The notes under the pieces are model-generated. The model was not told the origin of the DNA. It saw only the letters and a program-made list of their open reading frames with translations, and ran no database searches. Of a stretch of 43,832 nt of DNA, positions 1,310-40,928 are shown piece by piece. A program made the position numbers and the translations under genes. The stretch is from a virus (taxonomy: Duplodnaviria; Caudoviricetes): IMG/VR virus record IMGVR_UViG_3300037797_000034, positions 1 through 43,832 of that record. One strand, written 5' to 3'. Position 1 is the first letter of the stretch; every line of letters begins with the position of its first letter.

Positions 1310-2713
1310 ATGGCGTCGAGCCTGAAGTTCGTCAACTCGATCGCATCGAGTCCGACGACGCGGCTAGATCTGAACGACCGGACGACGTGGCGGCTGCACG
1401 CTGAGGGCACCAGGTTCCCGCCACCGCCGCTGGATCAAGCCATCGCCTCGACGTTGCTTCAGGACGGCGCGGTGATCCCGTCGTCCGCGTACGGGCTGCG
1501 AACCATCCAACTGGAACTGTCGGTGAACGCGGCCAGCGCGGACACGGCGGCAACTCAGCTGCAGAACTTCTACCGCGAGCTGGACCGGCCGAACAACTTC
1601 CTGCAGTGGCAGCAGGAGACGACGAACCCGGTGTTCTTCCGCACGTTCCGCACGTCGGCGGACGATGTGCTGGACCTGGGGAAGATCGACGGCACGCGGA
1701 AGCTGTTGTCGGTGGCGTTCCTGGCCGAGCCCTTCGCGTACGGTCTGCTGGAGACCCCGGTGTCGGGCGTCACGGTCAACACGGACCCGGCGAATGGCAC
1801 GAACGGCTGTTTCGTGGATGTGACCGGGGTGAAGGGGGATGTGGAGTCCCCGGCGATCATTCAGTGGCCGTCGTCGACGATCGTGGATGATCACGAGACG
1901 ATATTCGCGACGCGCCGCCGGGGCACCCCGTCGTCTGCGCCGTTCTTCGTCCAGGCCGAAGCGATGACGCAGGGCACGGACACCTCGACGCAGGCGAACG
2001 ACGCGAACTTCTCCGGGTCGGGGAACAACTATTCGCGGACCACGTTCGCCACGAACGCCACCATGGTCTCCCGGCTGCAAGTCACAACCGTGGGCACGGC
2101 GGGTGTGGATTTGCGCGGCACGTACCGGGTGCTCGTGCGGTACGACAAGAGCGCGTCCAACGACGGGATCAACCTGCAGTTGGTGTGGGGGCCGGACAGT
2201 TTCGGCACGGTGTTCAATGATTCGGTTGCCACGGCTAGCACGATCAGCACGACTACGGCCGATCTGGGTCTGATAAGCATCCCTAGCGGCATCGACCCGG
2301 TGTACGGCCCTGACGGTGTCGAGTTGGCGGTGTCGAACACGTGCCTGCTGCAATTGCGGGCCGAGCGGACGTCGGGTTCGGGGACGATCGACTTCGATTT
2401 CCTGATGCTGGTCCCGGCGGACGACCGGTTGGGGATCGTGCATTGGGATGACGGTTCGTCGTCGCCGACGGATCATTGGATGCTGGATGCGAACGGCACG
2501 GTGTCGCATGCGCGGAACTCCTCCGGTGAGGTGATCGGCACGGCGGCGCCGTGGATCTCCGGCGGGTTGCCGTTCCTGACGCCGAACCAGACGAACCGGA
2601 TCATCATGCTGCGCTCGACGCGACCGAGCGACACATGGTCGTTGACCACGGTGACGCCGGTGTCGGTGAGCTATCACCCCAGGTATTTGACCGTTCGCCC
2701 GGCGAGCACCTGA
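1310..2713 (+). CDS. Minor tail protein (distal-tail-like)
   Basis: Immediately after the tape measure; beta-rich; AEPFAYG motif. Confidence 0.7.
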   Translation: MASSLKFVNSIASSPTTRLDLNDRTTWRLHAEGTRFPPPPLDQAIASTLLQDGAVIPSSAYGLRTIQLELSVNAASADTAATQLQNFYRELDRPNNFLQWQQETTNPVFFRTFRTSADDVLDLGKIDGTRKLLSVAFLAEPFAYGLLETPVSGVTVNTDPANGTNGCFVDVTGVKGDVESPAIIQWPSSTIVDDHETIFATRRRGTPSSAPFFVQAEAMTQGTDTSTQANDANFSGSGNNYSRTTFATNATMVSRLQVTTVGTAGVDLRGTYRVLVRYDKSASNDGINLQLVWGPDSFGTVFNDSVATASTISTTTADLGLISIPSGIDPVYGPDGVELAVSNTCLLQLRAERTSGSGTIDFDFLMLVPADDRLGIVHWDDGSSSPTDHWMLDANGTVSHARNSSGEVIGTAAPWISGGLPFLTPNQTNRIIMLRSTRPSDTWSLTTVTPVSVSYHPRYLTVRPAST

Positions 2714-4347
2714 TGACGCTGCCGATCCCGGTGTCGGTGCAGCTCTCGAATGGCCGGGCCGTCAAGCACATCGGGCGCGAGCTGAGGTCGCTGAACTACG
2801 GTGCGGTGATGCTGCCCGGCGGCGGCGGGTACGCCTCTGCCACGTTCGGTCTGGACCGGCCGCTGGCCTTCTCGCCGGATGAGCTGGCGTACTACACCGA
2901 CGTCGACGCGTACGACATGCGTAACGGCGGATGCGTGTGGTGCGGCCGGTTGGAGGATCCGGGCCGGGGCGTCGGGTCGGACGGCCAGATATGGGAGCTC
3001 TCGGCGGTCGGCGGGTCGGCGCACCTGCGGGACCGCACGGTGCCGCTGGTGTACGTGGACAAGCGGATCGACTCGTGGCAGCAGTTCTCCACCTCGATCA
3101 AGTCTGCGCGGTGGGACACCCAGGTCGACGGGAACGGCGCGGACTATCTGCAGGGTGTGTTCCAAGAGGGCATCACCATCGTCACGAACGATGACCTGAC
3201 GCTGGTGTACCGGCCCATCAACGAGGCCGGGGCCACGCTGGGCCGGGTGCGGGTGGCGGTCACCAACGGCGCCAGCTCCTCGTCGTGGAAGAACCGGCTG
3301 CTGACCACGCAGGGCGCCGGGTCCACCACCGTGCATGAGTTGGACTGGTCCACCACAACGGCGACGCTGGAAGGCTCGTCCGGCGGCGCGAACGCCATCC
3401 CGGCCGGGGATCATACGGCGTTTCTGCGGTTCGTGCGCACCGGGGCGAACACCGTGCTGGGGAACAATGCTTTCGGGAACCTGCAGAACTTCACGGTCAT
3501 GGTTCGTCGGCTCAAGGCCGACGGCACCACCGTCACCAGCGGCTACACCTCGGACACCATGACCGCCGATCTGATCGTCAGGGACATGCTGGGTCGGTTC
3601 CTCACCGAGTACGACGGGGCCAACGCCACCATAGCGACCACGTCGTTCGGCATCGAACAGTTCCTCAAGCAGGACGGCACCGACGCCTCCGGGGTGCTGG
3701 AGGATCTGGCGCTGCTGGAGCCTGACTACTACTTCGCCGCGTGGGACCGCAACACCGCCGGCAAATACAACGTGGAATACACGCAGTGGCCGACCACGGT
3801 GGACCTGGAAGCCGGGCTGGCCGACGGGTACACCTCCACCGGGTCGAGCGGGGGCCTGTACAACGCGGTGTCGGTGGTGTGGCGCGACGGCGGCGGGAAG
3901 CTGCGCCGCACCCGCACCACGGCCACGGTGCCGGAGCTGGATTTCACCCGCGAGGCCCGGCTGAACCTTCAGGACGAGCTGGCGTCGTCGGCCAACGCCA
4001 CCCAGATCGGCACGGCGTTCCTGAACGAGCACGCGAAGCCGCAGAACCAAGGCCAGTTGACGATCGCCCGCCCGATCTACAGCCACAGCCTGGGCCGATC
4101 ATTGATGCCGTGGGAGCTGCCGAGGCACGCGCCGGGGAAGCTGCTCCGCATCCGCGACGTCGCCCCGTCGACGGCCTCGTTGAGTGCGACCGCCCCGGAC
4201 GGGGTGTCGGTGTTCAAGGTGGTCGGCGCCACGTACAACACAGACAGCGCGTCGGCGACGCTGGATCTGGATTCGCAGCCGCGGACGGTGGCGCACCTGC
4301 TGGCGCGGGCGGCGACCCGGCCCGGACGGCGGCAGTTGCCGAAATAG
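2713..4347 (+). CDS. Minor tail protein (baseplate hub-like)
   Basis: TGATG coupling at 2711-2715; VWCGRLE motif; synteny. Confidence 0.7.
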   Translation: MTLPIPVSVQLSNGRAVKHIGRELRSLNYGAVMLPGGGGYASATFGLDRPLAFSPDELAYYTDVDAYDMRNGGCVWCGRLEDPGRGVGSDGQIWELSAVGGSAHLRDRTVPLVYVDKRIDSWQQFSTSIKSARWDTQVDGNGADYLQGVFQEGITIVTNDDLTLVYRPINEAGATLGRVRVAVTNGASSSSWKNRLLTTQGAGSTTVHELDWSTTTATLEGSSGGANAIPAGDHTAFLRFVRTGANTVLGNNAFGNLQNFTVMVRRLKADGTTVTSGYTSDTMTADLIVRDMLGRFLTEYDGANATIATTSFGIEQFLKQDGTDASGVLEDLALLEPDYYFAAWDRNTAGKYNVEYTQWPTTVDLEAGLADGYTSTGSSGGLYNAVSVVWRDGGGKLRRTRTTATVPELDFTREARLNLQDELASSANATQIGTAFLNEHAKPQNQGQLTIARPIYSHSLGRSLMPWELPRHAPGKLLRIRDVAPSTASLSATAPDGVSVFKVVGATYNTDSASATLDLDSQPRTVAHLLARAATRPGRRQLPK

Positions 4348-11246: not shown

Positions 11247-11459
11247 CTATTCGTTTGTCTGGACCTGCTTCTCCCGGTCCTGCGCCACCCCGGCCATCAT
11301 CGCGTCGGCCAACGCCAGCACCGCCTCACGTGTCGACGTCGGCATGTACCTGACCTCCTGCCGCAGCAGCCGCAGCGACATGGCCCGGCCCTCCAACCAG
11401 CCGTCACGCCACTGCTCGCGGGCCAACTCGGTCGCCATCTCACGCGTCCAGGCGGTCAT
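11247..11459 (-). CDS. Hypothetical protein
   Basis: ATGA coupling with the GT2 stop. Confidence 0.55.
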   Translation of the reverse strand: MTAWTREMATELAREQWRDGWLEGRAMSLRLLRQEVRYMPTSTREAVLALADAMMAGVAQDREKQVQTNE

Positions 11460-12598
11460 GCTCGCGCCCCTTCCAGGCGGTAACGGCCGCGCTCCCTGCG
11501 GTGCTTGCCGCGCACGAACAGCAGGCTCACACCCAGCGTGAATACCGCCTTACGGCGCCGCGACATCGGCGTGATCTGCTTGGCGTAGCCGTGCCGGCCC
11601 GTCCACGACGCCCAGTGCTTACCCAGCACCCACTCGCGGAACATCGCGGCTATGTACAGCCACCGGTTGTAGGTGTTCATCACCAGCCACGGCACCAGGC
11701 CCATCGCGGCCTGCCGCAACCCGACCACGGTGGCCACCAGCGTCAGGTTGACCACCATGTGCACACCCAGCCATGCGACCCATCCGGCGACCAGCGGCGC
11801 ACCGGTCCCGGTGATGAGCCAGAACGCCAGCAGCCCATAGAACGCGAACAGCGACACCAAGTCGAACAGTGCCGTGCCGACCACTAGCAGCGATCGCCAC
11901 GACACCAACTGCCGCCGGTACTTCGCCATCGTCTGGAAGTAGCCCGCAGCCCAGCGCCGCATCTGATCCCGGTATTCGCGGAACGTCACCGGGTCTTGGG
12001 TCAGCGCCACCGCCTTGGGCGTATAGCCGACCTTGTAGCCGTCCTTGTGCAGCGCCCACGTGGCGTCCATGTCGGCTGAGATCAGCCCGTTCGGGAACCC
12101 GCCGACGTTGCGGATCGCTTCGGTGCGGAACGCGTACGCCGCGCCGGTCAACACCTGCATACGCCCAACCTTGGCCTGGCAGAGCCGCCACCAGCGCCGG
12201 CCCATCGCGTAGGAGAATCGGCGCGCCCGGATCAGAAAGCCGCGCTCCTGGCGGGGCAGGATCGTCGCGCACGTTGCGTCGAACCCGGCCTCGAGGTCGG
12301 CCATCATCAACTGGATGCAGTCGGGGGTCGGCAGGGTGTCCCCGTCGAAGCCGACGACCGCGTCGGTGTTGATGAGCGGGAGCGCGGCGTTCTGGTTCGA
12401 CGCCTTGTCCCGGAACTCGGTTTCGATGACGGCAGCCCCGGCACGTCGCGCGTGCTCGACGGTGTCGTCGGTGCATGAGTCAGCCACGACGATGACCTGC
12501 TCGACTGGGTACGGCTGGTCGAAGCAGGCCCGCACCGTCTCGGCGATCGCCGGCCCCTCGTTGTGCGCCGGGATGAGAACGGTCGCGGTCAACATCAC
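11456..12598 (-). CDS. Membrane GT2 glycosyltransferase (processive, cellulose synthase/PgaC-like)
   Basis: IPAHNE, DGD, QMRRW motifs; C-terminal TM helices. Confidence 0.9.
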   Translation of the reverse strand: MMLTATVLIPAHNEGPAIAETVRACFDQPYPVEQVIVVADSCTDDTVEHARRAGAAVIETEFRDKASNQNAALPLINTDAVVGFDGDTLPTPDCIQLMMADLEAGFDATCATILPRQERGFLIRARRFSYAMGRRWWRLCQAKVGRMQVLTGAAYAFRTEAIRNVGGFPNGLISADMDATWALHKDGYKVGYTPKAVALTQDPVTFREYRDQMRRWAAGYFQTMAKYRRQLVSWRSLLVVGTALFDLVSLFAFYGLLAFWLITGTGAPLVAGWVAWLGVHMVVNLTLVATVVGLRQAAMGLVPWLVMNTYNRWLYIAAMFREWVLGKHWASWTGRHGYAKQITPMSRRRKAVFTLGVSLLFVRGKHRRERGRYRLEGARA

Positions 12599-12783: not shown

Positions 12784-13725
12784 CTATAGCGAGTCCGCGA
12801 CGCGCCGCAGGGCGCGGTCGCTGCTCCGTGCGTAGATTCGGGTGGTCTCAGGCTTGGCGTGGCCGAGGAAGTCCTGCACGGCGGCCAGGTCGCCGGTCTC
12901 GTCCAGCGCGGTGGTGGCCGCCCGGTGCCGTAGCTGGTGCGGCGTGGTGCCGTCGCCGAGCGCCGCGGAGATGAGCGACGACACCCAGGTCGGGGTCATC
13001 CCGCCGCGCTTGCCGGGGAACACGAACACGGCCGGGTCGCCGAGCCCGTACCGGAAGCCTGAGCCGAGGTGCCCGGTGGCGCGGCGCTCCTGCTCGGCGG
13101 TCAGTGCGGCCAACAGCCGGGGTGCGATACCCACCCGCCGCTCGGTGTCGCGCTTGCCGCGGATGATCAGCCAGTCACCGTCGATGCTGTCCCACCGCAG
13201 CCCGGCGATCTCATGCACCCGCAACCCGCCCTGCGCCGCCAGCAGCAGCATCAACGTCAGCCGGTCGTCCGCCCCGTCGAGGGCGGCCAGCAGCACCGCA
13301 TCAGAGGCCGGGCGTGGCAGCCGCCGCGGAACCGTGATCGGATCCAGCTTCTCCGCCGGGTTCCGCTTGGCACGCCCGGCCTTGACCGCCCAGGCGTAGA
13401 AGCTCCTGACCGCGCCGCGGGCCGACTTGCGGGACTCGGCGTTCCAGTCCTGCCCGCCGAGCCACGCCTCGAGCTGGTCCAGGCTCAGCTTGAACGGGTT
13501 GCGCTGTGGGTACGCCTCGGCGAGTTTACGTAGCTGCCAGCGGCGCTGCCGGATGGTGGTCGGTGATTTGCTGACTCGTAGTGAGGTGGTCCAGCCGTCG
13601 ATGGCTGCCGCCCATGTTTCGGTGTGGTCGTGCCCGAACACTGCGCCCCCCTCGGCGCTCTTCGACCCAGGGGCGTGACCATACTCTTGACCTTGGATTG
13701 TTGGAAGCGGTTCGACGGAAGTCAT
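12784..13725 (-). CDS. int: Tyrosine integrase lacking an arm-binding domain
   Basis: GLRVHE, HQLRH, LGH..ETTRIY catalytic residues. Confidence 0.92.
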   Translation of the reverse strand: MTSVEPLPTIQGQEYGHAPGSKSAEGGAVFGHDHTETWAAAIDGWTTSLRVSKSPTTIRQRRWQLRKLAEAYPQRNPFKLSLDQLEAWLGGQDWNAESRKSARGAVRSFYAWAVKAGRAKRNPAEKLDPITVPRRLPRPASDAVLLAALDGADDRLTLMLLLAAQGGLRVHEIAGLRWDSIDGDWLIIRGKRDTERRVGIAPRLLAALTAEQERRATGHLGSGFRYGLGDPAVFVFPGKRGGMTPTWVSSLISAALGDGTTPHQLRHRAATTALDETGDLAAVQDFLGHAKPETTRIYARSSDRALRRVADSL

Positions 13726-14111
13726 GACGATCGCCGTTCACGCGATGGAGCTATGCCAAGTTCGGCTTCAAGTTCGGTAATCCGCGCCTGCATGGTGGCA
13801 CGCTCCCAATCATCAAGCGTGGCGAGTCGCTTGCGTCGGGGCAGTTCGATGCGACCGGGTTTGGCCGCTTGAGCAAACAACCAAAACACTCCGGCCACGG
13901 CACCGATCACGATGAACAGTTGCCACGCCAGGAACGTCACGCCGCCAGCCATGAGCGGGATGACGACCAGCAGCAGGTTGGTTTCCAAGGGCTCGTCAAG
14001 TTGGTCTCGCCACACGAATCGGGCTCCGAACCAAGCTGCCGTCACAGCGAAGATTCCACTGATGACCCAATAGAACGGGCCGAGCACATCAGGCAACCAA
14101 GCAAAGCTCAT
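13722..14111 (-). CDS. Membrane protein between repressor and integrase
   Basis: 2-3 TM segments; ATGA coupling on both sides. Confidence 0.7.
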   Translation of the reverse strand: MSFAWLPDVLGPFYWVISGIFAVTAAWFGARFVWRDQLDEPLETNLLLVVIPLMAGGVTFLAWQLFIVIGAVAGVFWLFAQAAKPGRIELPRRKRLATLDDWERATMQARITELEAELGIAPSRERRSS

Positions 14112-14500
14112 GACGCCATCCTCAGAACTAATGCGAGCGCGGGGGTGAGCGGAATGCGCTTGCGGAGCCGGGTGATCTCGTTCTCGACCGGGGTGTGACC
14201 GGGAGTCGCGGGTTGGCTTGGTATACCAGCAGGTCTACGCTGGTGAACCGTAATACCGGGCTGACCTGCGGGTTCGTTGCCCATCAACCACTCCAGCGGC
14301 ACGCCGGTTCGCAGCGCCCAGAGGCGCAGGTCCGACCGGCGCGGCCGGTTGTGGTCGTTGCACCACCGGCTGATCGTCCCACGCGAGACGCCTAGCTCGT
14401 CGGCCATCTCCTGCACGGACACGCCGGCGTGGGCCAGTGAGCGTTGCAGCTTCCACCCGAGGGTCCACTCGGGTACGAGCTGTTCGACAATCTGACTCAT
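14108..14500 (-). CDS. Immunity repressor (XRE HTH)
   Basis: EMADELGVSRGTISRW HTH; WALRTGVPLEWL; divergent from the cro-like gene. Confidence 0.85.
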   Translation of the reverse strand: MSQIVEQLVPEWTLGWKLQRSLAHAGVSVQEMADELGVSRGTISRWCNDHNRPRRSDLRLWALRTGVPLEWLMGNEPAGQPGITVHQRRPAGIPSQPATPGHTPVENEITRLRKRIPLTPALALVLRMAS

Positions 14501-14625
14501 GACGCCAGTCTGCCTGACATGTCGCACGTGCGTCAATAGGTAGTGCTTGGTCAACATCGCAGACCCGCAGAATCTCTGAGCCTCGCATCCTTGACGCATG
14601 TGTGACATTGTGCGACAGTGACGCT
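14501..14625. promoter_or_regulatory. Divergent promoters/operators (lysis-lysogeny switch)
   Basis: TTGACG-17bp-GACAGT 6 nt before GTG 14626; TTGACG-18bp-CAGACT 6 nt before ATG 14500 (minus strand); shared 18-bp motif TTGACGCAYGTGYGACAT. Confidence 0.7.
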
Positions 14626-14823
14626 GTGAGCGCAACTGCACGACTCCTGAGCACCGGCCAAGTCGCCGAACGGCTCGGCCTGCACATCCGCAAGATCCAG
14701 CGCATGGCCGAGAACGGCGAACTGCCGTACGTCGAGAAGCTGCCCGGCCACAACGGTCGGTACGTCTTCGACGCTGCCCTCATCGACGTGCTCGCCCGCC
14801 AGCAACAGCGGGAGGCGTCGTGA
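14626..14823 (+). CDS. Cro/excisionase-like HTH (HTH_17/MerR type)
   Basis: LLSTGQVAERLG...IQRMAENGELP. Confidence 0.82.
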   Translation: MSATARLLSTGQVAERLGLHIRKIQRMAENGELPYVEKLPGHNGRYVFDAALIDVLARQQQREAS

Positions 14824-14826
14824 CGT

Positions 14827-15218
14827 GGCAGTCAGGGCACGGAAGGGCTGGGTCCGTCAGGTCTCGGCTGGGCGCTGCGTTTCGTGGCAAGGCCGGTCTT
14901 GGCAGTCACGGCTGGTCAGGTCGGCGCGGGTCGAGTCTCGGCAAGGCCCGGCCTGGCCGGGCAGGTTCGGCGCGGCAGTTCCCGTCAGGGCTAGTCAAGG
15001 CGTCGCACGGCGCGGTTTGTCCGGGCAGGCGTGGCCGGGTTTGGCAGCGCGTGTCTCGGCAAGGCCGGGTCCGGCAGGGCAGGCCGGGTCGGGCTTGTCT
15101 TGGCCGGGCTGGGCTTGTCGTGGTCGATCGAGGCGGTGCGAGGTCTGGCAGGCCAGGCACGGCCAGGTTTGGCTCGTTCGGGTGTGTCAGTGCACGTCTA
15201 GGCGCGGCCGGGCTGGCC
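14827..15218 (+). ncRNA. Pentamer (NN+GGY-like) array 1: six putative guide units
   Basis: Strict 5-nt period; units of 14, 11, 12, 10, 13 and 12-13 pentamers separated by GGC-A-GTC/GGY. Confidence 0.8.
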
Positions 15219-15230
15219 TGAAGTAACAGC

Positions 15231-15255
15231 GGCCCCGCTCACACGGAGCGGGGCC
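15231..15255 (+). other. 10-bp stem hairpin closing array 1
   Basis: GGCCCCGCTC-ACACG-GAGCGGGGCC. Confidence 0.7.
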
Positions 15256-15281
15256 ACCAACCAAGAAAGAGGGTAACAGCA

Positions 15282-15911
15282 ATGGCAGCACCGAAGAAGC
15301 AGGACGAGGGCCAGATCGAGATCAGCCGCATCCCGGCTGAGAGCCTTCGCATCCCCATCGTGGGGACCACTCCGCTGATCGTTCACAGATTTTCGGAGAA
15401 GGCCAAGCGCCAGATGCTCGACAACATGCAAGGCCGCAAGTCGCCGAAGGAGCCGAAGAACCCCGAGGCCGAGTACGAGGCCGCGTTCTACCGGCTCAAG
15501 GACGGGTCGCCCGGCTTCCCGGTCATCGCGTTCAAGGCGGCCACGGTCGGAGCTGCCCGGTTCTACGGGAATCTCACGATGACCTCGCTCAAACAGTCCA
15601 TCTTCTTTGCCGGCGAGGTCGGCGACGACGGACGGATGCTGACCGCGATCCACGGCGAACCTCGCATGCGTGAGGACGTGGTGACGGTCAACCGGTCCGG
15701 TTCGGACCTGCGTTACCGGCCCGAGTTCCCCGAGTGGAGTGCCGTTCTCGAGGTCACGTTCGTCAAGTCGCTCCTGACCCGCAACTCGGTGCTGTCGCTG
15801 CTGGACGCGGGCGGCATGGGTGTCGGGGTCGGCGAGTGGCGTCCCGAACGTGACGGCGACTTCGGCCAATTCAAGATCGACGAGACCAAGGATATCGAGG
15901 TCATCGGATGA
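15282..15911 (+). CDS. Cas7/RAMP-like protein, putative effector of the pentamer arrays
   Basis: IVGTTPLIVH first strand, FPVIAFKAA helix, YRPEF..W strand, C-terminal Gly-rich loop GVGVGEWRPERDGDFGQF. Confidence 0.72.
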   Translation: MAAPKKQDEGQIEISRIPAESLRIPIVGTTPLIVHRFSEKAKRQMLDNMQGRKSPKEPKNPEAEYEAAFYRLKDGSPGFPVIAFKAATVGAARFYGNLTMTSLKQSIFFAGEVGDDGRMLTAIHGEPRMREDVVTVNRSGSDLRYRPEFPEWSAVLEVTFVKSLLTRNSVLSLLDAGGMGVGVGEWRPERDGDFGQFKIDETKDIEVIG

Positions 15912-15915
15912 GCAT

Positions 15916-16320
15916 GGCAGGCGCGGCTCGTTTGGGCATGTTCGGTCTAGGCACGGCTCGTTGTACATGGTCCGGCAAGGCAGGCATGGTCCGTCCTGGT
16001 CGGGCGCGGCGAGTCGCGTTTCGTCGCGGCCTGTTCGGGCACGGTCGGGCAGGTACGGCATGGCTCGGCCCGGCTTTGCGGGTCGTGTCCGGTTCTGGTG
16101 TGGCGCGGCAGTCGCGGCCAGTCATGTCCTGGCGGGTCCAGGCACTGCGAGTCATGTCCTGGCACGGTACGGCAGTCGAGGCAGGGCTCGTCGGGGCCAG
16201 TCTCGGCGCGTCACGGCATGTTCAGACTCGGCTAGGTTCGGCATGGCAGGCGAGGCCAGGCTCGGCACGTCTAGGCCTGTCAGGTCCCGTCCAGGCCCGG
16301 CTCGGTCAGGCAGGTGCGGC
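15916..16320 (+). ncRNA. Pentamer array 2: six putative guide units
   Basis: Units of ~12 (one 4-nt step), 13, 11, 12, 14 and 12 pentamers; same linkers. Confidence 0.8.
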
Positions 16321-16734
16321 ATGAGCCTGCGCGACCAACTGCAAGCGGTGTACGACGCCCACGGTCAGCTCACACCAAAGCTGATCGTGGACGTCGCCCG
16401 CGACGAGACGCACCCGCTGCACTCCCGCTTCGAGTGGGACGACACGGTGGCGGCTGAGCGATACCGCCAGGACCAAGCGCGTGACCTGATCCGGAAAGTC
16501 CGCGTGGTGTACCGCGAAGGCGACGAGAAGAACCCGCCGCAAACCATCCGCGCCTACCACTCCGTGCCCGACGGCGACGGCTACGCCTACCGCTCCACAG
16601 ACGAGATCGTCCACGACCCGCTCCTGACAAAGATGCTGCTCGCCCAGATGGAGCGCGACTGGAAAGACCTGCACCGCCGCTGGTCACACATGGGCGAGTT
16701 CATCGAAATGGTGCGAAAGGACGTGGCGGCATGA
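16321..16734 (+). CDS. Hypothetical protein, partner of the RAMP-like gene (137 aa)
   Basis: LTPKLIVDVARDETHPLHSRFEWDD...QARDLIR; flanked by arrays on both sides. Confidence 0.8.
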   Translation: MSLRDQLQAVYDAHGQLTPKLIVDVARDETHPLHSRFEWDDTVAAERYRQDQARDLIRKVRVVYREGDEKNPPQTIRAYHSVPDGDGYAYRSTDEIVHDPLLTKMLLAQMERDWKDLHRRWSHMGEFIEMVRKDVAA

Positions 16735-16737
16735 CAT

Positions 16738-16801
16738 GGCAGTCGGGGTTTGGCGGGGCTGGTCGGGGCCGGGTCCGGTTTGGCATGGCGGGGCCTGTCC
16801 A
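16738..16801 (+). ncRNA. Pentamer array 3: single unit
   Basis: GGCAGTC linker plus 11 pentamers. Confidence 0.75.
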
Positions 16802-16802
16802 G

Positions 16803-16916
16803 ATGTCCAAGAACGGCTCCAAGGAACCCGAGCCCATCGACGGCAAACCGCATCCACGCCCGCCGCCGTCCAAGCCACTCCCGCCGCCGCAGAAACCGAC
16901 AGGGAAGCAGATATGA
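16803..16916 (+). CDS. Small Pro-rich peptide
   Basis: MSKNGSKEPEPIDGKPHPRPPP...; ATGA coupling to the next ORF. Confidence 0.5.
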   Translation: MSKNGSKEPEPIDGKPHPRPPPSKPLPPPQKPTGKQI

Positions 16917-17005
16917 GCCGCCGCCCGTTCGCGCCGCTGGCCGTGGCCGCCGTGCTCGCCGCGCAACTGCTCGCCTGGCTGACCGGCTGGAACTGGCCGG
17001 CCTGA
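16913..17005 (+). CDS. Small membrane peptide
   Basis: ATGA coupling; hydrophobic. Confidence 0.5.
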   Translation: MSRRPFAPLAVAAVLAAQLLAWLTGWNWPA

Positions 17006-17025
17006 CAACCAAGAAGGGGGGAACC

Positions 17026-17274
17026 ATGCCGCGCCAACACATGCAGGCCCAGATCGCCGAACACATCGCGCTGGCCCGCGCCGACCGGTGGGACGGCACC
17101 GACCTGCAGATCGCCGCCGGCATCGTCCGCCAGGTCATCGACCCGTTCCTGGCCGCGAGTGATGTGCAGCGCGAATTGGCGGCGGTGCGCGCGGCGGCGG
17201 CCCGTGAGCGTGAGGGGTTCCTGTTCGAGATCGCCGCGCTGCGGGCACGGCTCGCCGGGCGGGTGACGGCATGA
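17026..17274 (+). CDS. Hypothetical protein
   Basis: AAGGGGG RBS. Confidence 0.6.
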   Translation: MPRQHMQAQIAEHIALARADRWDGTDLQIAAGIVRQVIDPFLAASDVQRELAAVRAAAAREREGFLFEIAALRARLAGRVTA

Positions 17275-32891: not shown

Positions 32892-33635
32892 TTGGGAGAT
32901 TCTGTGCCGAACGACCGCACTAACGAGAAGGTCGTGGTGGCGTACTGCCATCCCGGCAACATCGACGCCGCCTTCCACGAGTCGCTGCTGGATCTGCTGG
33001 TCTACGACATGGCGTTCCACCGGCGCATCGTCAACGGCGGCGGTCGGCTGGCGCACCAGGCGTCGGCGAACCTGTCGGGGCCGCGTAACGACGTGGTCCG
33101 GAAGTTTCTCGACGGCTCGGACGCCGACTGGTTGTGGTTCGTGGACACCGACATGGTGTTTCTGCCGGACACGGTCGAGAAGCTGCTTGAGTTCGCCAAC
33201 CCGGTCACCGCGCCGATCGTCGGCGGGTTGTGCTTCTCCATCGACAAGGGCCACATCTACCCGACCCTGTACGGGCTGATGGGCGAAGAGGACAACCCGC
33301 AGGTGATTCGGTTCCACGAGTGGGCGCCGGATGCGATGTTCCAGGTGGCTGCGACTGGCACCGGCTGCATCCTGATCCACCGTTCGGTGTTCGAGCGGAT
33401 CCGCGACTTCAAGGTCCCGGGCACCGGGCAGGTCGGTTTCAACGCGGCGTTCCCCTGGTTCCAGGAGACCGCGCACCACAGCCGACCGGTGGGTGAGGAC
33501 ATCACGTTCTGCTGGCGGGCCGGCGTGGTCGGCATCCCCGTACACGTCAACACCGCTGTGCATATCGGGCATGTCAAGCAGCGGCTGCTCGATCTGGACG
33601 CGTATCTGCAACAGCGCGGAGAGGTGACGGCATGA
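32892..33635 (+). CDS. GT-A fold glycosyltransferase
   Basis: WFVDTD, GTGCILI, GEDITFC. Confidence 0.85.
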   Translation: MGDSVPNDRTNEKVVVAYCHPGNIDAAFHESLLDLLVYDMAFHRRIVNGGGRLAHQASANLSGPRNDVVRKFLDGSDADWLWFVDTDMVFLPDTVEKLLEFANPVTAPIVGGLCFSIDKGHIYPTLYGLMGEEDNPQVIRFHEWAPDAMFQVAATGTGCILIHRSVFERIRDFKVPGTGQVGFNAAFPWFQETAHHSRPVGEDITFCWRAGVVGIPVHVNTAVHIGHVKQRLLDLDAYLQQRGEVTA

Positions 33636-33871
33636 AGTACCCGAAGATCAACGGATTCGTCGGTTTCCGCGGTGACAGCGTTCCGCTGGAGCCGGTATCG
33701 GACGATCATCCGATCGTCGCGGCGTTCCCGGATCTGTTCACCGACACCCCGCCGCCCGGGGTGGAGAAGCCGAAGCGGCGGACTTTGAAGAAGGCCGCGG
33801 CCACTCCAGTCGAAAAGCCGGCGGAAAAACCGGTCGAACAGCCGACGGGCACGGAGCAGCGCCCGCGATGA
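33632..33871 (+). CDS. Small head-region hypothetical protein
   Basis: DDHPIVAAFPDLF; ATGA couplings. Confidence 0.65.
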   Translation: MKYPKINGFVGFRGDSVPLEPVSDDHPIVAAFPDLFTDTPPPGVEKPKRRTLKKAAATPVEKPAEKPVEQPTGTEQRPR

Positions 33872-34512
33872 CGGTTGACACGGCTGTCATCGTCCCCACT
33901 ATGCGGCCGGCGAACGCGGAGTCGTTCATGGCTTCCCTGAGCGCCTCGACCGATACGGCCACGGTCTACGCCGTGACCGACGCCGAAAGTGCCGCGGCGT
34001 GGCGCTCAGCGGGCGCCGAGGTGTTTGTGGGCGACGAGGTGTCGTTCGCGCAGCGGGTCAACGCCGGATACCGGGCCACCGACGAGCCGTGGCTGTTCCT
34101 GGTCGGTGACGACGTGCGGTTCCACCGCAACTGGCTCATCAACGCCAAGCTGATCGCGTCCCGCCGCCATCACGTGGTCGGGACCGCCGATCTGGCGAAC
34201 CCGCGGGTGATGTCCGGCGACCACGCCACCCACCTGCTGATCCGCCGCTCCTATGTGGACGAGGTCGGCGCGTCGTGGGACGGGCCGAAGACGGTGTGCC
34301 ACGAGGGGTACCGGCACTGGTTCGTTGACGATGAGATCGTGACGGCGGCCCAGCGGCGGGGCGTGTGGGCATTCGCCCGCTCGTCCGTGGTGGAACACCT
34401 GCATCCGCTGACCGGTAAGGCCGACTGGGACGACGTGTACGAGATCGGCATCGCGCACAAGGACGCCGACGAGGAACTGTTCCGGTCCCGTCTGCTCGAG
34501 CACCTGGGGTGA
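33868..34512 (+). CDS. GT2-like glycosyltransferase
   Basis: VIVPT, LVGDD, FVDDE, VEHLHP. Confidence 0.8.
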   Translation: MTVDTAVIVPTMRPANAESFMASLSASTDTATVYAVTDAESAAAWRSAGAEVFVGDEVSFAQRVNAGYRATDEPWLFLVGDDVRFHRNWLINAKLIASRRHHVVGTADLANPRVMSGDHATHLLIRRSYVDEVGASWDGPKTVCHEGYRHWFVDDEIVTAAQRRGVWAFARSSVVEHLHPLTGKADWDDVYEIGIAHKDADEELFRSRLLEHLG

Positions 34513-35123
34513 TCTCCTACATTGTCGCGTCGAACGACGCGAAGATCCTGGATGCGAACCTGAAGGCCACGCTCGAACTCGCAGGCGAGGATGAGCTGAT
34601 CGTGGTCGATGATCCTCCGTCGATCGCGGTGGCCTACAACCAGGGCCAGTCCAGGGCACGGAACACGATCCGCTGCTACGTCCATTCGGACGTGCAGATA
34701 CTGGATCCGATCCAGTTGCGCGCCGATCTACTACGCACTTGTGTGCCAGCGGTCGGCATAGTGGGAGTGATCGGCAGTTTCGACCGCGTGGTGCCCTGGT
34801 GGTGTTGTAGACAGCCGAAGGGCAGCGTGATCGATGCGCGGACGGGGCTGCTCAACTACGACGGCGGCGGTTATTGCATCTACCTGGACGGGTTGCTGCT
34901 CGCCACCGCGCAGGATCTCACCTGGGACGAGTCGTACACCGGATTCCACATGTACGACCACGACATCTGTGAGCAGATGCTGGCCCGCGGCCTGCCGAAT
35001 TACTGCATACCGGGCGGCCAGTCGGTGCTGCACAACACTCGGAACCCGGCGGACGTGTCCCAACTCGACGGTTGGGACGCGGCCGTGGCCAGGTTCCGCG
35101 GCAAATGGGGGATGGCTGCATGA
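34509..35123 (+). CDS. Glycosyltransferase-like protein (Glyco_tranf_2_5-like)
   Basis: AYNQG, YVHSD, LDGLLLA, FHMYDHDIC. Confidence 0.8.
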   Translation: MISYIVASNDAKILDANLKATLELAGEDELIVVDDPPSIAVAYNQGQSRARNTIRCYVHSDVQILDPIQLRADLLRTCVPAVGIVGVIGSFDRVVPWWCCRQPKGSVIDARTGLLNYDGGGYCIYLDGLLLATAQDLTWDESYTGFHMYDHDICEQMLARGLPNYCIPGGQSVLHNTRNPADVSQLDGWDAAVARFRGKWGMAA

Positions 35124-36295
35124 ACAGGACGCACTGCGGCGGTTGTGGCTCGCCGGGCTTGCAGCCGTTCCTAGATCTAGGGTCTTCGCCGTTGGCCGAT
35201 CGGTTCCCAGGAACCCCCGGCGAGCCGGAAGAAAACTACCCGCTGCAACTGGCGGTATGCACGTCCTGCTGGTTGGCGCAGTTGACCGAGGTCGTCCCCG
35301 ATGGACTGCTGTACGGGGCGGACTACGGGTTCTACACCGGGTCGTCGCCGTCGGCGGTCGAGTACTTTCAGCAGTACGCGGGCTGGGTGAATGACCGCTT
35401 CGACCAGGACGGCAAGTTCTTGGTCGAGATCGCCTGCAACGACGGGACGATGCTCGCCGAATTCGAGTGTCGCACGCTCGGTGTCGAACCAGCCGACGGC
35501 CCCGCCACTGCGGCGCGAGCCAAGGGCCTGTCTGTGGTGCACGAGCCGTTCGGGCTGGACACGGCGCGGCGGATCGTCGCCGACCACGGCCCGGCCGACG
35601 TGGTTATCGCGAACAACGTGGCAGCGCACGTCGCCGACCTGCACGACTTCTTCGCCGGCGTCGAGCGCCTGCTCGCGCCCGGCGGTGTCGCCGTGGTGGA
35701 GGTGCAGTACCTAGCGGACCTGATCGCCGGGAACCAGTTCGATCACGTCTATCACGAGCACCGCTGCTACTTCACCGTCGACTCGTTGGCGCGGGTCGCG
35801 TCGCGGCACGGCCTCGCCGCTGAATCGGTGACCAGGACCTCGGCGCAGGGCGGGTCGATACGGGTCACGCTCTGCCGCGGGGAGCCACATGAGCCGATCG
35901 AGCCGGTGTGGCTTCGGCGGCCGTCGACGTTCCTGAGCCTGCAAGGGCGGGCCGAACAGATCCGGAACCGGCTGCTGGAGCTGATTGACGAGCAGATCCG
36001 TGCCGGCCGCAAGGTCGCCGGCTACGCCGCATCGGCCAAGTCGGCCACGCTGCTGAACTTCTGCGGCATCGGCCCCGACCAGCTCGACCACATCGTCGAC
36101 ACCACACCGCACAAGATCGGCCGCTACACCCCCGGCACGCACATCCCGATCGTCGGGCCGGGCGACCGGCCCGAACCCGACGTGTACCTGCTGCTGGCAT
36201 GGAACTACCTACCCGGCGTGCTGCGCCGCGAACGGGAGTTCATCGATCGCGGCGGCCGGTTCTTGGTGCCGATCCCGTACCCGGTGCTGCTATGA
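35120..36295 (+). CDS. NDP-sugar C-methyltransferase (Zn-binding, class I SAM)
   Basis: CxxC..DLG.SPLA, EIACNDG, ANNVAAH, YHEH, LLAWN. Confidence 0.88.
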   Translation: MNRTHCGGCGSPGLQPFLDLGSSPLADRFPGTPGEPEENYPLQLAVCTSCWLAQLTEVVPDGLLYGADYGFYTGSSPSAVEYFQQYAGWVNDRFDQDGKFLVEIACNDGTMLAEFECRTLGVEPADGPATAARAKGLSVVHEPFGLDTARRIVADHGPADVVIANNVAAHVADLHDFFAGVERLLAPGGVAVVEVQYLADLIAGNQFDHVYHEHRCYFTVDSLARVASRHGLAAESVTRTSAQGGSIRVTLCRGEPHEPIEPVWLRRPSTFLSLQGRAEQIRNRLLELIDEQIRAGRKVAGYAASAKSATLLNFCGIGPDQLDHIVDTTPHKIGRYTPGTHIPIVGPGDRPEPDVYLLLAWNYLPGVLRREREFIDRGGRFLVPIPYPVLL

Positions 36296-37239
36296 AGGCG
36301 CTTATCACCGGGGTCACCGGACAGTCTGGCTCGTACCTCGCCGAACAACTCCGCAACGACGGCCACGAGGTCTGGGCACTGCTACACGGCCAGCACAACC
36401 CCAAGAAGGCTTGGGTCGAGTCGCTGGTCCCCACGATCCGCTGGGTTCCCGGCGACCTGCTCGACCCGTCGTCGCTGCACCGGGCACTTGAAGCGTCGCA
36501 GCCGGACATCGTCTACAACCTGGCCGCGATCACGTTCGTCGGCATGAGCTGGGACCAGCCGACCCTGGTCAGCGAAGTCACCGGCCTGGGCGCGCTGCGG
36601 ATGCTGGAGGCGATCCGCCAGGTCGACCCGCAGATCCGGTTCGTGCAGGCGTCCTCTTCGGAGATGTTCGGATCTAACCCGCCGCCGCAGAGCGAGACCA
36701 CCAAGTTCCATCCGCGTTCGCCGTACGGCGTGGCGAAACTATTCGCGCACTTCACCACCGTGAACTACCGGGAGTCGCACGGGATCTTCGCCGCGACGGC
36801 GATCATGTTCAACCACGAGAGCCCCCGGCGCGGCGTCGAGTTCGTCTCGCGGAAGGTCGCCATCGCCGCGGCCCGGATTTCCCGCGGCCTGGACCGCACC
36901 GTGCGGCTGGGGAACATCAACTCGTACCGCGACTGGGGTTACGCCCCGGACTACATGAACGCCGTGCAGATGATCGGCAACCATGCTGAGCCGGACGACT
37001 TCGTGGTCGCCACCGGCGATTCCCGCCAGGTCAAGGAGCTGTGTGAGATCGCGTTCCGCGAGGTCGGCCTGGACTACCGCGACCACGTGGTGATCGACCC
37101 GCAGTTCTACCGGCCGGCGGACGTGGAGTTCCTGCGCGGCGACGCGTCGAAGATCCGCGACGTGTTGGGCTGGCGGCCGACGGTGCCGTTCGAGGAGATG
37201 ATCGCCCGAATGGTCAAGCACGAACTGGCGCAACTGTGA
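36292..37239 (+). CDS. gmd: GDP-mannose 4,6-dehydratase
   Basis: ITGVTGQSGSYLAE, QASSSEMFG, PRSPYGVAK, FNHESPRRG. Confidence 0.92.
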   Translation: MKALITGVTGQSGSYLAEQLRNDGHEVWALLHGQHNPKKAWVESLVPTIRWVPGDLLDPSSLHRALEASQPDIVYNLAAITFVGMSWDQPTLVSEVTGLGALRMLEAIRQVDPQIRFVQASSSEMFGSNPPPQSETTKFHPRSPYGVAKLFAHFTTVNYRESHGIFAATAIMFNHESPRRGVEFVSRKVAIAAARISRGLDRTVRLGNINSYRDWGYAPDYMNAVQMIGNHAEPDDFVVATGDSRQVKELCEIAFREVGLDYRDHVVIDPQFYRPADVEFLRGDASKIRDVLGWRPTVPFEEMIARMVKHELAQL

Positions 37240-37850
37240 GCGCGCTGGTCTCGATCGTCACCCCCACCATGCCGGGCCGCGAGGCTCTATTGCTGGACCG
37301 GTGCATCCCGTCGGTGCGGGCGCAGACGTGGCCGCACGCCGAGCACGTGATCGTGTCCGACCGCAACCCCGGCTTGGCCGAGAAGATGGCTGCCCACCCG
37401 GACATCCGGTTCGTGCAGATCAACGAGACGTGGCGGGACGGGCACGCCGACCACTGCCCCGGCGCGCTGCCCTGGCAGGTCGGCTCACTGTTGGCGCTCG
37501 GCGAGTACATCGGGTTCGTCGGCGATGACGACGAGCTGCTGCCCGATCACATCGCCCGGCACGTGTCTGTGATGACTGAGCATGACCTGCACTTCACTAT
37601 CTCGCCGGTGCGGTTCGTGGTGCATGGCCAGGAACGGTTTGTCGTCGGCGACGACACGCTCGCGGTCGGGCACGTCGACTCCGACGGGATCATGTGCCGA
37701 GCCGAGGCGCTGCGCACCGCCACCTGGCAACTCGGGGTGGACGCACCAGACGCCCTGCTGCCGCACGACTGGGCCGCCGGCGGCCTGCGCTGGATGTTCA
37801 TCGGCGGCGAGCCGACAGCGATCCACCACGACGGGTGGGCCGCACGATGA
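37236..37850 (+). CDS. GT2 glycosyltransferase
   Basis: VSIVTPT, SVRAQT, FVGDDD. Confidence 0.8.
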   Translation: MSALVSIVTPTMPGREALLLDRCIPSVRAQTWPHAEHVIVSDRNPGLAEKMAAHPDIRFVQINETWRDGHADHCPGALPWQVGSLLALGEYIGFVGDDDELLPDHIARHVSVMTEHDLHFTISPVRFVVHGQERFVVGDDTLAVGHVDSDGIMCRAEALRTATWQLGVDAPDALLPHDWAAGGLRWMFIGGEPTAIHHDGWAAR

Positions 37851-37861
37851 CTGGGGGAAGC

Positions 37862-38869
37862 GTGACGAACGTACTTATCACCGGTGGTGCCGGGTTCGCC
37901 GGCCACCACCTGGTGGAGCACCTCCTGGAGACCACCGACTGGGATCTGGTGGTCCTGGACTCGCTTACCTATGCCGGCCGTACGGATCGGCTTACCGACT
38001 GCGCCGGATACGACCCGGCCCGGGTGCGGTTGCTGTGGCACGACCTGCGAGCCCCGATCCACCCCCACCTGGACGAGCAGATCGGCGACGTCGACGCCGT
38101 GCTGCATCTGGCCGCCGAGTCCCACGTCGACCGGTCCATCACGGATCCGGGCCCGTTCGTGCGAAACAACGTGGACGCGACGCTGAACCTGCTTGAATGG
38201 GCGCGCACCCGGACCTTGACCCACTTCGTGCAGGTCTCCACCGACGAGGTGTACGGCCCGGCGCGCGAGGGTCAGCGTCACGTTGAGTGGGATCCGCACT
38301 TGCCGTCGAATCCGTACGCGGCTTCGAAGTCGGCGCAGGAGGCCCTGGCGATCGCCTGGTGGCGCACCTACGGCGTGCCGGTGGTCATCTCGAACACAAT
38401 GAACATGTACGGGGAGCGGCAGCACCCCGAGAAGTTCGTCCCCAAGGTCCTACGCGCCGCACTGAGCGGCGAACAGATGAATCTGCACGCCCGGGTAGCC
38501 CCCGACGGCTGGGAGCCCTCGGCGAGGCACTGGCTGCACGCCCGCAACCACGCCGACGCGCTGCGCTGGATGATCGCCGAGACCACCCCGGCCGCGTACC
38601 CCGCCGCAGACCGGCCCGACCGCTGGCATGTGGCCGGCGAGGAGTTGGACGTGTTGCAGATGGCCGAGCGGATCGCCGCCGCTGCCGGTCGACCGCTGCG
38701 GTACGAGTTCGTGGACTACCACGCGTCACGGCCCGGTCACGACCATCGGTACGCGCTGGACCCGTCGAAGGTGCACGCCGCCGGGTGGAAACCGCCGATC
38801 GGCGTGCACGAGTCACTGGAGCGGACGGTCCGGTGGGCGATGGCCCACCCGGAATGGCTGCGCGACTAA
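37862..38869 (+). CDS. rfbB: dTDP-glucose 4,6-dehydratase-like SDR
   Basis: TGGAGFAG, HLAAESHVDRSI, STDEVYG, PYAASK, RPGHDHRY. Confidence 0.88.
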   Translation: MTNVLITGGAGFAGHHLVEHLLETTDWDLVVLDSLTYAGRTDRLTDCAGYDPARVRLLWHDLRAPIHPHLDEQIGDVDAVLHLAAESHVDRSITDPGPFVRNNVDATLNLLEWARTRTLTHFVQVSTDEVYGPAREGQRHVEWDPHLPSNPYAASKSAQEALAIAWWRTYGVPVVISNTMNMYGERQHPEKFVPKVLRAALSGEQMNLHARVAPDGWEPSARHWLHARNHADALRWMIAETTPAAYPAADRPDRWHVAGEELDVLQMAERIAAAAGRPLRYEFVDYHASRPGHDHRYALDPSKVHAAGWKPPIGVHESLERTVRWAMAHPEWLRD

Positions 38870-38878
38870 GGGGTATAG

Positions 38879-39508
38879 ATGCCGAACCTGTACGCCACCC
38901 CCGAAGAACTCAAGGCCCGTTTCAGCATCGGCGACAACTTCGAGGACACGATGGTCGAGTCGGCGCTGGACTCGGCGTCGCGGGCCATCGACCAGCACTG
39001 CCAGCGCATCTTCTATACGACGGCATCCACCACGGCGACGTTCGTTGCCACGGACCGGTACCGCGTCAAGCTCGCTGATACCGACGTGTGGGTTGGCGAC
39101 CTCGTCACGGTCACCAGCCTCAAGACCGACGCCGCCGGCGACGGGACGTTCGAGACGACGTGGGCCGCGACGGACTACCAACTGTGGCCGGCGAACGCGG
39201 CCAGCGGCCCGGAGGCGCGGCCCTACTCCGAGGTGCGTGCGGTCGGGGCGAATCTGTTCCCGGTGCCGTACAGCCGGTCGCAGCGCGCAGACCGGGTGCA
39301 GATCGTCGGCACGTTCGGCTGGCCCACCGCGCCGCCGTCGGCGGTGAAGGAAGCCTGCCTGATGCTGGCTGCTGAGCTGTTCAAGCTCAAGGACGCCCCG
39401 TTCGGGATCGCCGGCGTCTCTGATTTCGGCGTGGTGCGGATCCGGGAGAACCCGAAGGTCGCCTCGTTGCTGATGCCGTATCAGCGGTTCTCGGTGCTGG
39501 TGGGCTGA
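38879..39508 (+). CDS. Head-tail adaptor
   Basis: YATPEELK...ASRAID...FGW..P..VKEACL. Confidence 0.8.
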   Translation: MPNLYATPEELKARFSIGDNFEDTMVESALDSASRAIDQHCQRIFYTTASTTATFVATDRYRVKLADTDVWVGDLVTVTSLKTDAAGDGTFETTWAATDYQLWPANAASGPEARPYSEVRAVGANLFPVPYSRSQRADRVQIVGTFGWPTAPPSAVKEACLMLAAELFKLKDAPFGIAGVSDFGVVRIRENPKVASLLMPYQRFSVLVG

Positions 39509-39906
39509 TGGCCACGGTGCAGGAGATCCGCGAGGGCATCGACGACCGGCTCGCCACCATCGCCGACTTGCGGCACAGTCCCGTCGTGCCGGGGGTCGTC
39601 AACCCGCCGCACGCGTTCGTCAAGCGTCGTCAGACCACGTTCGGCGTATCCATGGACGGCGAGGACGACGTAACGTTCGCGGTCACCGTCCTGGTGTCGT
39701 GGGCCGACCAGACGACCGCCCAAGAGTCTCTCGACGAATACCTGGCGTCGACCGGGGCCAAATCCATCAAGGCCGCCATCGACGCCGACCCTACGCTTGG
39801 CGACATCGTCGACTTCGCGCACGCGACGATCGTTGAGGACGAGCGGATCACGGCGTTCTACGGCGTCGACTACCTGGCCGCAGACATCGTCGTCGAGGTG
39901 GGCTGA
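39508..39906 (+). CDS. Tail terminator/neck protein
   Basis: Synteny; size; DPTLG motif. Confidence 0.7.
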   Translation: MATVQEIREGIDDRLATIADLRHSPVVPGVVNPPHAFVKRRQTTFGVSMDGEDDVTFAVTVLVSWADQTTAQESLDEYLASTGAKSIKAAIDADPTLGDIVDFAHATIVEDERITAFYGVDYLAADIVVEVG

Positions 39907-40928
39907 TGCGCTGGGTTGTGTGCCACCCCGGCCCCGCGTTCAGCGTCCACGACGTGTACGCAGGCTGGATCGAGGCCCTTGAGGAGCTCGGCCAGCAGGT
40001 GCAGATCTTCAACCTCGAGGACCGGCTCACCTTCTACGACGCGGCCTACTTCAACGTTGCCGAAGGTTCGTTCCGCAAGGCCGTCCCCCCGGAGCAGGCC
40101 GTCGAGCTCGCGGTCAACGGGCTGTACGCGCCGCTGTACCGGTTCCGCCCGCACGTGCTGCTGATCGTCTCGGCGTTCCTGATTCCGACCGAGTTGATGG
40201 ACCTGGCCCGTGCCTACGGCACCAAGGTCGTGGTCCTGCACACCGAGGCCCCGTACGAGGACACCCGCCAGCTCGACGTTGCCGCGCACGCCGACCTGAA
40301 CCTGCTCAACGACCCGGTGAACATCGACCGCTACCGGGCCGTGGCGCCGACCGAGTACATGCCGCACGCCTACCGGCCGAAGCTGCACCGCCACGGCCCG
40401 ATGGACAAGGACCTGGCCGCGGACCTGGCGTTCGTCGGGACCGGGTTCGAGTCGCGCATCGAGTTCTTCGAGGCCATGAACCTCGACGGGCTGGATGTGC
40501 TGCTCGCCGGGAACTGGCAGCGGCTCTCCGAGGATTCTCCGCTGCGCAAGTACGTGGCGCACGACATCAAGCAGTGCGTGGACAACTCCGAGGGCGTGCG
40601 GATCTACCAGTCGGCCAAGCTGGGGTTGAACCTGTACCGCCGCGAAACCGTGGACGGCGACTCGCACGCCGGCTGGGCGATGGGTCCGCGCGAGGTCGAG
40701 ATGGCCGCGGTCGGGTTGCCGTTCCTACGCGACCCCCGCGGCGAGGGCGACGAGGTGCTGCCGATGCTGCCCCGGTTCGACTCGCCGGACGAGGCGGCCG
40801 AACTGACCCACTGGTGGCTGAACCATGAAGGACTTCGGGCCGAGGCCGCACGGCAGGCCCGGGAAGCGATCGCCGACCGGACGTTCGCGAGTAATGCTAA
40901 GGAGTTACTCCGACTGCTTGACGCGTAA
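39906..40928 (+). CDS. GT-B glycosyltransferase (CgeB/Glyco_trans_1_2-like)
   Basis: DLAFVGT, YQSAKLGLN, PREVEMAAVG. Confidence 0.82.
   Translation: MRWVVCHPGPAFSVHDVYAGWIEALEELGQQVQIFNLEDRLTFYDAAYFNVAEGSFRKAVPPEQAVELAVNGLYAPLYRFRPHVLLIVSAFLIPTELMDLARAYGTKVVVLHTEAPYEDTRQLDVAAHADLNLLNDPVNIDRYRAVAPTEYMPHAYRPKLHRHGPMDKDLAADLAFVGTGFESRIEFFEAMNLDGLDVLLAGNWQRLSEDSPLRKYVAHDIKQCVDNSEGVRIYQSAKLGLNLYRRETVDGDSHAGWAMGPREVEMAAVGLPFLRDPRGEGDEVLPMLPRFDSPDEAAELTHWWLNHEGLRAEAARQAREAIADRTFASNAKELLRLLDA

Follow-up and report, generated by a model that had tools for sequence, protein, structure and literature searches.

We asked what the runs of short DNA units flanking a small RAMP-like gene in an actinophage genome encode and, in particular, at which gene one of these units, unit 10, is aimed. 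The system considered was VIPR, an RNA-guided silencer of DNA that is related to CRISPR and was published in 2026 (10.64898/2026.04.26.720920). In the parts of the preprints consulted, each NN dinucleotide of a guide pairs with the target and one target base, mostly the wobble base, is skipped (10.64898/2026.04.26.720920, 10.64898/2026.04.26.720927). Because of the skipped base, the non-target strand reads NNx.

The window, meaning the whole stretch of 43,832 nucleotides that was analysed, was the complete, terminally redundant genome (43.8 kb, 67% GC) of a temperate actinophage. Relatives of its Vipr and its integrase were found in actinomycetes and in phages of actinomycetes. The nearest named relatives were Thermoactinospora and Nonomuraea for Vipr and a Jiangellaceae metagenome-assembled genome (MAG) for the integrase. 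The features of the region were as follows.

12784..13725, minus strand: tyrosine integrase of the phage (PF00589, E 5e-20)
14108..14500, minus strand: XRE/CI-like repressor
14629..14823, plus strand: HTH_17 excisionase/Cro-like gene, first of the rightward gene run that contains the VIPR locus
14827..15215, plus strand: guide array A (units 1–6), beginning right after the stop codon of the HTH_17 gene
14831..14900, plus strand: unit 1 (14 pairs), antisense decode equal to the IrrE/ImmA HExxH site
15282..15911, plus strand: vipr gene, 209-aa RAMP-like protein (PDB 36pp, SUSP1 Vipr; phrog_4652)
15916..16312, plus strand: guide array B (units 7–12), by pentamer pattern
16107..16110, plus strand: GGCA punctuation (4 nt) before unit 10, one-base register shift
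16111..16170, plus strand: unit 10, 12 pentamers of scaffold G[GT]Y (once TGC) plus NN
16120..16163, plus strand: 14-nt internal repeat of unit 10 (copies 16120–16133 and 16150–16163)
16171..16174, plus strand: GGCA punctuation (4 nt) after unit 10, one-base register shift
16321..16734, plus strand: accessory gene (137 aa), candidate vap (phrog_15946, E 3e-29)
16738..16801, plus strand: guide array C (single unit 13), 3' of the accessory gene

Elsewhere in the genome, a family 2 glycosyltransferase gene (11456–12598, minus strand) adjoined the integrase gene, and several genes at about 32900–41000, past the predicted head genes, resembled glycosyltransferases or sugar-nucleotide enzymes when their N-termini were inspected by eye. 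ARAGORN called a tRNA-Trp at 3927–4012 (minus strand), which is probably spurious as it lies inside the open frame 2551–4347.

Organization of the VIPR locus

The 209-aa protein was matched by phmmer to SUSP1 Vipr (PDB 36pp, E 2.5e-5). The thumb arginine of YRP and the W-R of the G-loop GVGEWRP were conserved in the alignment, and Asp177 of SUSP1 Vipr was aligned with a glutamate in the phage protein, for which 3447 homologues were found. Around the vipr gene lay 13 guide units of 9–14 pentamers, each pentamer consisting of a G[GT]Y scaffold and an NN pair. Between the pentamer runs stood a GGCA of 4 nt, which displaces the register by a single base; at the unit boundaries, GGCA led directly into the scaffold G of the next unit, which gives a one-base overlap of adjacent guides. 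Among the 156 pentamers, the scaffolds GGC (74), GTC (40), GGT (21) and GTT (8) were counted. A stop codon lay a few bases ahead of each of the three arrays. In unit 7, a 4-nt slip (ACAT, 15965–15968) broke the register without a GGCA mark; the 9 + 2 pentamers at 15920–15978 that it splits were counted as one unit, and the name unit 10 depends on this count.

The two-gene layout of VIPR was present, with vipr and the accessory gene at 16321–16734, for which no Pfam, PADLOC or significant PDB match was obtained. A scan of eight genes around the locus gave no Cas family match, and no CRISPR-like tandem array was found within the window. A search of 14450–17100 for sigma-70 promoter or terminator consensus sequences was negative. 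On this sequence evidence, the stretch 14827–16801 constitutes a VIPR locus of the staggered-guide kind. As far as the parts of the preprint consulted describe them, published staggered arrays likewise comprise vipr, one accessory gene and guides of 9–16 pentamers, with a one-base boundary overlap, a 1-nt skip and targets on either strand (10.64898/2026.04.26.720920). They differ from the phage arrays in having strict GGY scaffolds, whereas GTC or GTT made up 48 of the 156 phage pentamers, and in the position of the guides, which in the phage stand before, between and after the genes (10.64898/2026.04.26.720920).

Array B is also spanned by a 138-aa open frame (15908–16324), and the stretch of unit 10 could be read as part of a protein, with its decode an artefact. 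We regard this as extremely improbable. Third-position GC content was 0.65 in the frame, whereas vipr and the accessory gene had 0.86; the pentamer grammar recurred next to relatives of Vipr, with NN pairs of unrelated content; and unit 1 has real targets.

Targets of unit 1 and the other guides

Decoded antisense, unit 1 (14831–14900) reads [KN]R[FL]TTA[HQ][DE]LG[HQ]LVL, which corresponds to the HExxH site of IrrE/ImmA (Peptidase_M78) genes. It matched 9 of 251 actinomycete genomes at 25–26 of 28 bases (control: 0; about 0.003 expected), and all nine sites were in frame on the HExxH motif of genes combining HTH_3 and Peptidase_M78 domains, which supports the 1-nt-skip reading. Viral matches were found in four stand-alone Peptidase_M78 genes (4/4, 23–25 of 28 bases). 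Guides with a unit-1-like decode were present at L011:6145, L015:2615 and L034:915, so that four phages in all carry one. The motif was absent from the phage's own genome.

All six of the nine target genes that were tested had RmrA as the best match. RmrA is described in the consulted part of its source as the zinc-peptidase antitoxin of RosmerTA (10.1101/2022.05.11.491447). A match to RmrT adjoined the unit-1 site in only one of the nine cases. When the other guides were compared with the four viral and nine genomic unit-1 loci, none scored above background, and no convergence on one element was seen. Judged by its matches, unit 1 is a stronger predicted target call than unit 10 and the better lead. 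A counter-defence role is possible, with RmrA, CapP-like regulators and prophage ImmA as candidate aims. Since unit 1 follows the published code and is aimed at a catalytic motif, the prior for a similar aim of unit 10 is raised.

Several other guides were recognizable across phages. Units 11 (16175–16244) and 12 (16249–16308) had diverged relatives in the closest phage (L001:5693 and L001:5929). The antisense decodes of these guides, like YE-[IL]VAEWP and GW[AG]L-Y[VI]EWS, suggest that both units may be aimed at two sites in one conserved gene; the pattern shared by unit 11 and its relative had no viral matches. Unit 13 (16742–16801), read antisense, resembled the peptide EPIDGKPHPRP encoded at about 16826–16870 (15 of 24 bases by hand count, which is chance level), and a related guide was located at the same place in L001. 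Unit 13 could be aimed at rivals' copies of the gene encoding this peptide. Two guide families recurred in actinophage arrays, GT.TA.GA.AT.CA in L002–L005, L007 and L012, and GC.GT.AT.AC in L001–L003 and L008. Another guide (L012:6269) reads AIVGLGGTGSIL in antisense, which we take to resemble the Rossmann/ThiF glycine motif, perhaps of a defence E1-like gene.

Unit 10 and the tyrosine recombinase motif

Positions 16107–16175 read GGCA gtcGC ggcCA gtcAT gtcCT ggcGG gtcCA ggcAC tgcGA gtcAT gtcCT ggcAC ggtAC GGCAG, with the first NN beginning at 16114 and the pentamers covering 16111–16170. The NN pairs, GC CA AT CT GG CA AC GA AT CT AC AC, were exactly those given by a sequence-only reading of this DNA. 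Its decode was likewise reproduced with the published 1-nt-skip rule: taken in sense as codon positions 1 and 2, the pairs give A[HQ][IM]LG[HQ]T[DE][IM]LTT. That reading had named the stretch LGHxxxxTT box II of tyrosine integrases, a customary name for the whole stretch. According to the consulted part of Gibb et al. 2010, the corresponding His/Trp III region of tyrosine recombinases (PF00589) likewise has LGH with the catalytic His III, then x4-TT and the catalytic tyrosine; the histidine of LGH is the catalytic His/Trp III residue and is a histidine in 92% of the family (PMC2943603).

The fit to this motif was evaluated with a profile built without reference to the guide. From a PF00589 search of 25 actinomycete genomes, we examined 107 loci of published genomes and left aside three of unpublished genomes. 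Of the 107 loci, 82 yielded a parsable box and 25 did not; removal of 10 duplicates left 72 distinct boxes. Over these boxes, the 1-nt-skip sense reading had the best mean fit, by a small margin (13.1, compared to 10.1–12.1). Against a phage-coding background, unit 10 scored 11.3 bits (p 9.6e-4 compared to random guides, p 6.9e-3 compared to its own shuffles) and ranked third of 257 guides. With a background of guide composition and 0–10% error, it scored 14–15 bits (p 0.7–1.1e-4), with a likelihood ratio of 500–1000 over all placements, and ranked first of the 241 distinct guides that remained of the 257 after three duplicate VIPR loci were dropped. The exact LGHxxxxTT core occurred in unit 10 only (1 of 241 guides; p 4.5e-6 per guide, an optimistic value because the core was picked after the decode was seen). 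The resemblance proposed by the sequence-only reading thus lies beyond chance, at a per-guide p between 1e-3 and 1e-4 according to the background used. From an estimated prior of 0.5–1% that a guide is aimed there, the posterior for an integrase motif was roughly 70–90%. The second-best guide on the profile, L013:2328, decodes to AVY[IM]GH[RS]SAS (about 12 bits) and may be another integrase guide.

The signal of unit 10 stemmed from L, G, H, T and T and their spacing; pairs 2, 3, 7 and 10 scored negative. Its 11 bits against the coding background lay below the 5th percentile of real boxes (15 bits) and their median (25 bits), both of which are in-sample values. Three residues of the decode were uncommon among the actinomycete boxes sampled: Ala (pair 1), Thr (pair 7) and, most of all, Leu (pair 10). 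Leu at pair 10 (CT) occurred in none of the 72 profile boxes and was also absent among the residues listed for 158 + 119 further boxes. Integrases of the Bacteroidales type (SKMLGHTNI[VL]TT) fitted unit 10 as well as or better than actinomycete boxes.

Unit 10 also contained an exact 14-nt repeat (16120–16133 and 16150–16163), six pentamers apart, by which pairs 9–10 with their scaffolds are a copy of pairs 3–4 (shuffle p 0.004; repeats of at least 14 nt in 9 of 241 guides). Contigs from four DNA sequencing runs did not extend over unit 10 and showed no variants of the guide. This repeat could account for the odd leucine at pair 10, or it could mean that the guide was reshaped. Such reshaping is part of an alternative that deserves some weight, even if we give it clearly less credence than an integrase aim: the guide slot would be real, and its integrase likeness partly an accident of slippage, recombination or drift, with the true target another gene or one that is gone. 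The placement of pairs 3–4 onto pairs 9–10, the atypical pairs 2, 3, 7 and 10, and a search that returned no cognate target fit this alternative. Moreover, because many motifs are recognizable to a reader, per-guide p values of 1e-3 to 1e-4 over 13 guides are not overwhelming. It is opposed by the informative pairs, since unit 10 scored 16 bits without pairs 8–10 and its score is thus independent of the repeat, by the low p value of the exact core and by the real, wobble-aligned guide in the same array, unit 1. In a related idea, the repeat had overwritten pairs 8–10; the search with these pairs left free gave no integrase and lent this idea no support.

Candidate targets and proposed role of unit 10

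The check proposed by the sequence-only reading, a search with the full 24-base pattern, gave no exact matches in three contig collections (viral, genomic and metagenomic), in scans that may omit records very near the window's own. The last nine pairs had no match in viral contigs. The first nine pairs, which lack the TT, matched five viral sites; four of these were in frame on the LGH box, and they belonged to one clade of 44–45% GC (21/24). Second-position patterns gave 3 of 7 and 15 of 16 matches in frame on the LGH box, called as integrases by motif, with Pfam confirming 4 of the 15 and none of the 3. All 32 matches of a 19-base pattern were in frame in PF00589 genes. Except for the first nine pairs, all of these partial patterns were built round LGH/TT and are therefore biased; they demonstrate a real motif but do not demonstrate a target.

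The best integrase matches were 22/24 (L087) and, in several cases, 21/24, mostly in non-actinomycete genes. Because the collections are so large, with about 240 sites at 21/24 and about 11 at 22/24 expected per 1.2e12 positions, these are no better than chance. Bacteroidales-type integrases (20–22/24) were rejected as targets, the host being implausible and the scores within chance. The sole actinomycete match was an integrase fragment in a Pseudonocardiaceae MAG (L078), reading QQILGHTDMRTT (21/24), which came from a motif-biased scan. Its 150 nearest relatives reached up to 20/24, the seed itself apart, and Ala was the first residue in only 3 of 158 boxes. With up to three mismatches, a search of 401 + 401 actinomycete genomes (779 distinct) recovered only the pre-selected seed (G001) and nothing in the 778 others (control: 0). 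The last ten pairs with three mismatches gave 13 matches in 151 genomes, compared to 1 in the control. Three of the 13 were integrases of the L078 clade (the seed, L100 and L104, the last from the unpublished genome G015) and ten were not integrases. With pairs 8–10 free, two viral and eight genomic matches were found, none of which (0/10) was an integrase.

Among these matches, the sequence AQILGHTMFN[IM]T came from seven actinomycete genomes; one such sequence was checked and was that of an EamA transporter. Unit 10 might accordingly be aimed at another family with an LGH-like motif, either EamA transporters (AQILGHT) or IrrE/ImmA peptidases, whose AHELGH differs from its first six pairs in a single pair. 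We consider this unlikely, as the EamA sites reached just 18/24, in genomes of 1.3–1.4 Mb with 48–49% GC, and the best match in the IrrE loci examined was 14–16/24.

The integrase of the phage itself (12784–13725, minus strand) has a box that reads QDFLGHAKPETT, followed by RIY, and matched unit 10 at 14/24 bases. Its 119 relatives matched at most at 17/24, 15 Xer-type boxes at 13–15/24 and other mobile recombinases at 8–16/24. At an 80% cut-off, which is a bioinformatic search filter and not a measured mismatch tolerance, unit 10 is thus not a general integrase silencer. No self match of at least 80% was found; the best site anywhere in the phage was a chance site (16/24). In the main text of the structural VIPR preprint, the words mismatch and seed do not occur (10.64898/2026.04.26.720927). 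From these match counts, sparing of the phage's own integrase by unit 10 is plausible.

The array adjoins the switch of integrase, repressor and excisionase, and the LGH and TT codons of the phage's integrase do match unit 10. Both would suit a guide that sets the choice between lysis and lysogeny by tuning this integrase or the XerC/D of the host. This reading is, if anything, slightly less probable than that of another LGH-like family: the own integrase, its relatives and the Xer-type boxes match too poorly, the integrase is outscored by the chance site at another place in the phage genome, and the consulted part of the VIPR preprint reports no self hits at 80% (10.64898/2026.04.26.720920).

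Our preferred explanation, to which we assign a probability of about 0.7, is that unit 10 is a VIPR guide against a rival mobile element of the same actinomycete host and silences that element's integrase gene. Transcription of the array would accompany that of the early rightward genes, and cleavage at GGCA would release single guides. One Vipr per pentamer would then present the NN pair, and pairing would skip every third target base, as published for SUSP1 and assumed here. As the decode and the matches show, the footprint lies on the codon of the catalytic His III and, in most matches, ends three codons before the catalytic tyrosine. With the skip on the wobble base and a catalytic footprint, escape of the target would need amino-acid changes. 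On unit 10, the Vipr filament would bind a foreign integrase gene in its 3' portion and prevent its transcription; that silencing can act from within a coding sequence is taken from the VIPR literature. By analogy with SUSP1 vrRNA4, such nuclease-free binding would block excision or integration of a resident prophage, satellite or integrative and conjugative element (ICE). Silencing would spare the integrase of the phage itself and the host Xer genes because only 13–15 of 24 bases match. The proposal of a foreign integrase as target, made in the sequence-only reading, keeps the motif likeness and the poor match of the phage's own integrase in its favour; the exact hits it had called for were absent and no cognate target was found. 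The closest relative of the phage (L001, Vipr 94% identical) was without a unit-10 guide.

The nearest published case is vrRNA4 of the SUSP1 type II VIPR, which, in the part of the source consulted, covers the active-site codons of the excision recombinase of the F5 satellite (10.64898/2026.10.15.759431). Common to vrRNA4 and unit 10 are a phage guide, skips on wobble positions and a footprint on active-site codons of a site-specific recombinase, and both loci have a small accessory gene and no nuclease seen. They differ in that vrRNA4 concerns a catalytic serine enzyme, with a target in 119 satellites and a measured effect, whereas unit 10 concerns a tyrosine recombinase motif for which no target element was found; unlike SUSP1, the phage locus has an actinomycete host and staggered guides. 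The word tyrosine does not occur in the main text of that source (10.64898/2026.10.15.759431), nor do integrase and actino in the main text of the VIPR preprint, a statement that leaves aside its data S3, which lists targets (10.64898/2026.04.26.720920). In the VIPR literature, the preprint target tables apart, no published guides against tyrosine integrases or ImmA were found. The principle of VIPR silencing of recombinase active-site codons is thus already published, for a serine recombinase, and unit 10 is a supporting example without a cognate target.

If the preferred explanation is true, it widens the serine-recombinase case of SUSP1 to tyrosine recombinases and actinomycete hosts, and it speaks for the view that the purpose of the wobble-skipping code is to pin codons unable to change. 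The decode by itself would then suffice to assign a guide target to an enzyme family. More tentatively, and with the odds against it, staggered actinophage VIPR arrays may form a motif-level arsenal. Their guides would read catalytic motifs common to whole enzyme families, namely tyrosine integrases and, with unit 1 and its counterparts in three other phages, IrrE/ImmA peptidases. In place of one cognate competitor, a single phage could then hold in check prophages and ICEs of many unrelated kinds, together with defence modules under peptidase control such as RosmerTA or CapP. If true, this would extend VIPR from serine to tyrosine recombinases, and beyond the conflict of phage and satellite to counter-defence.
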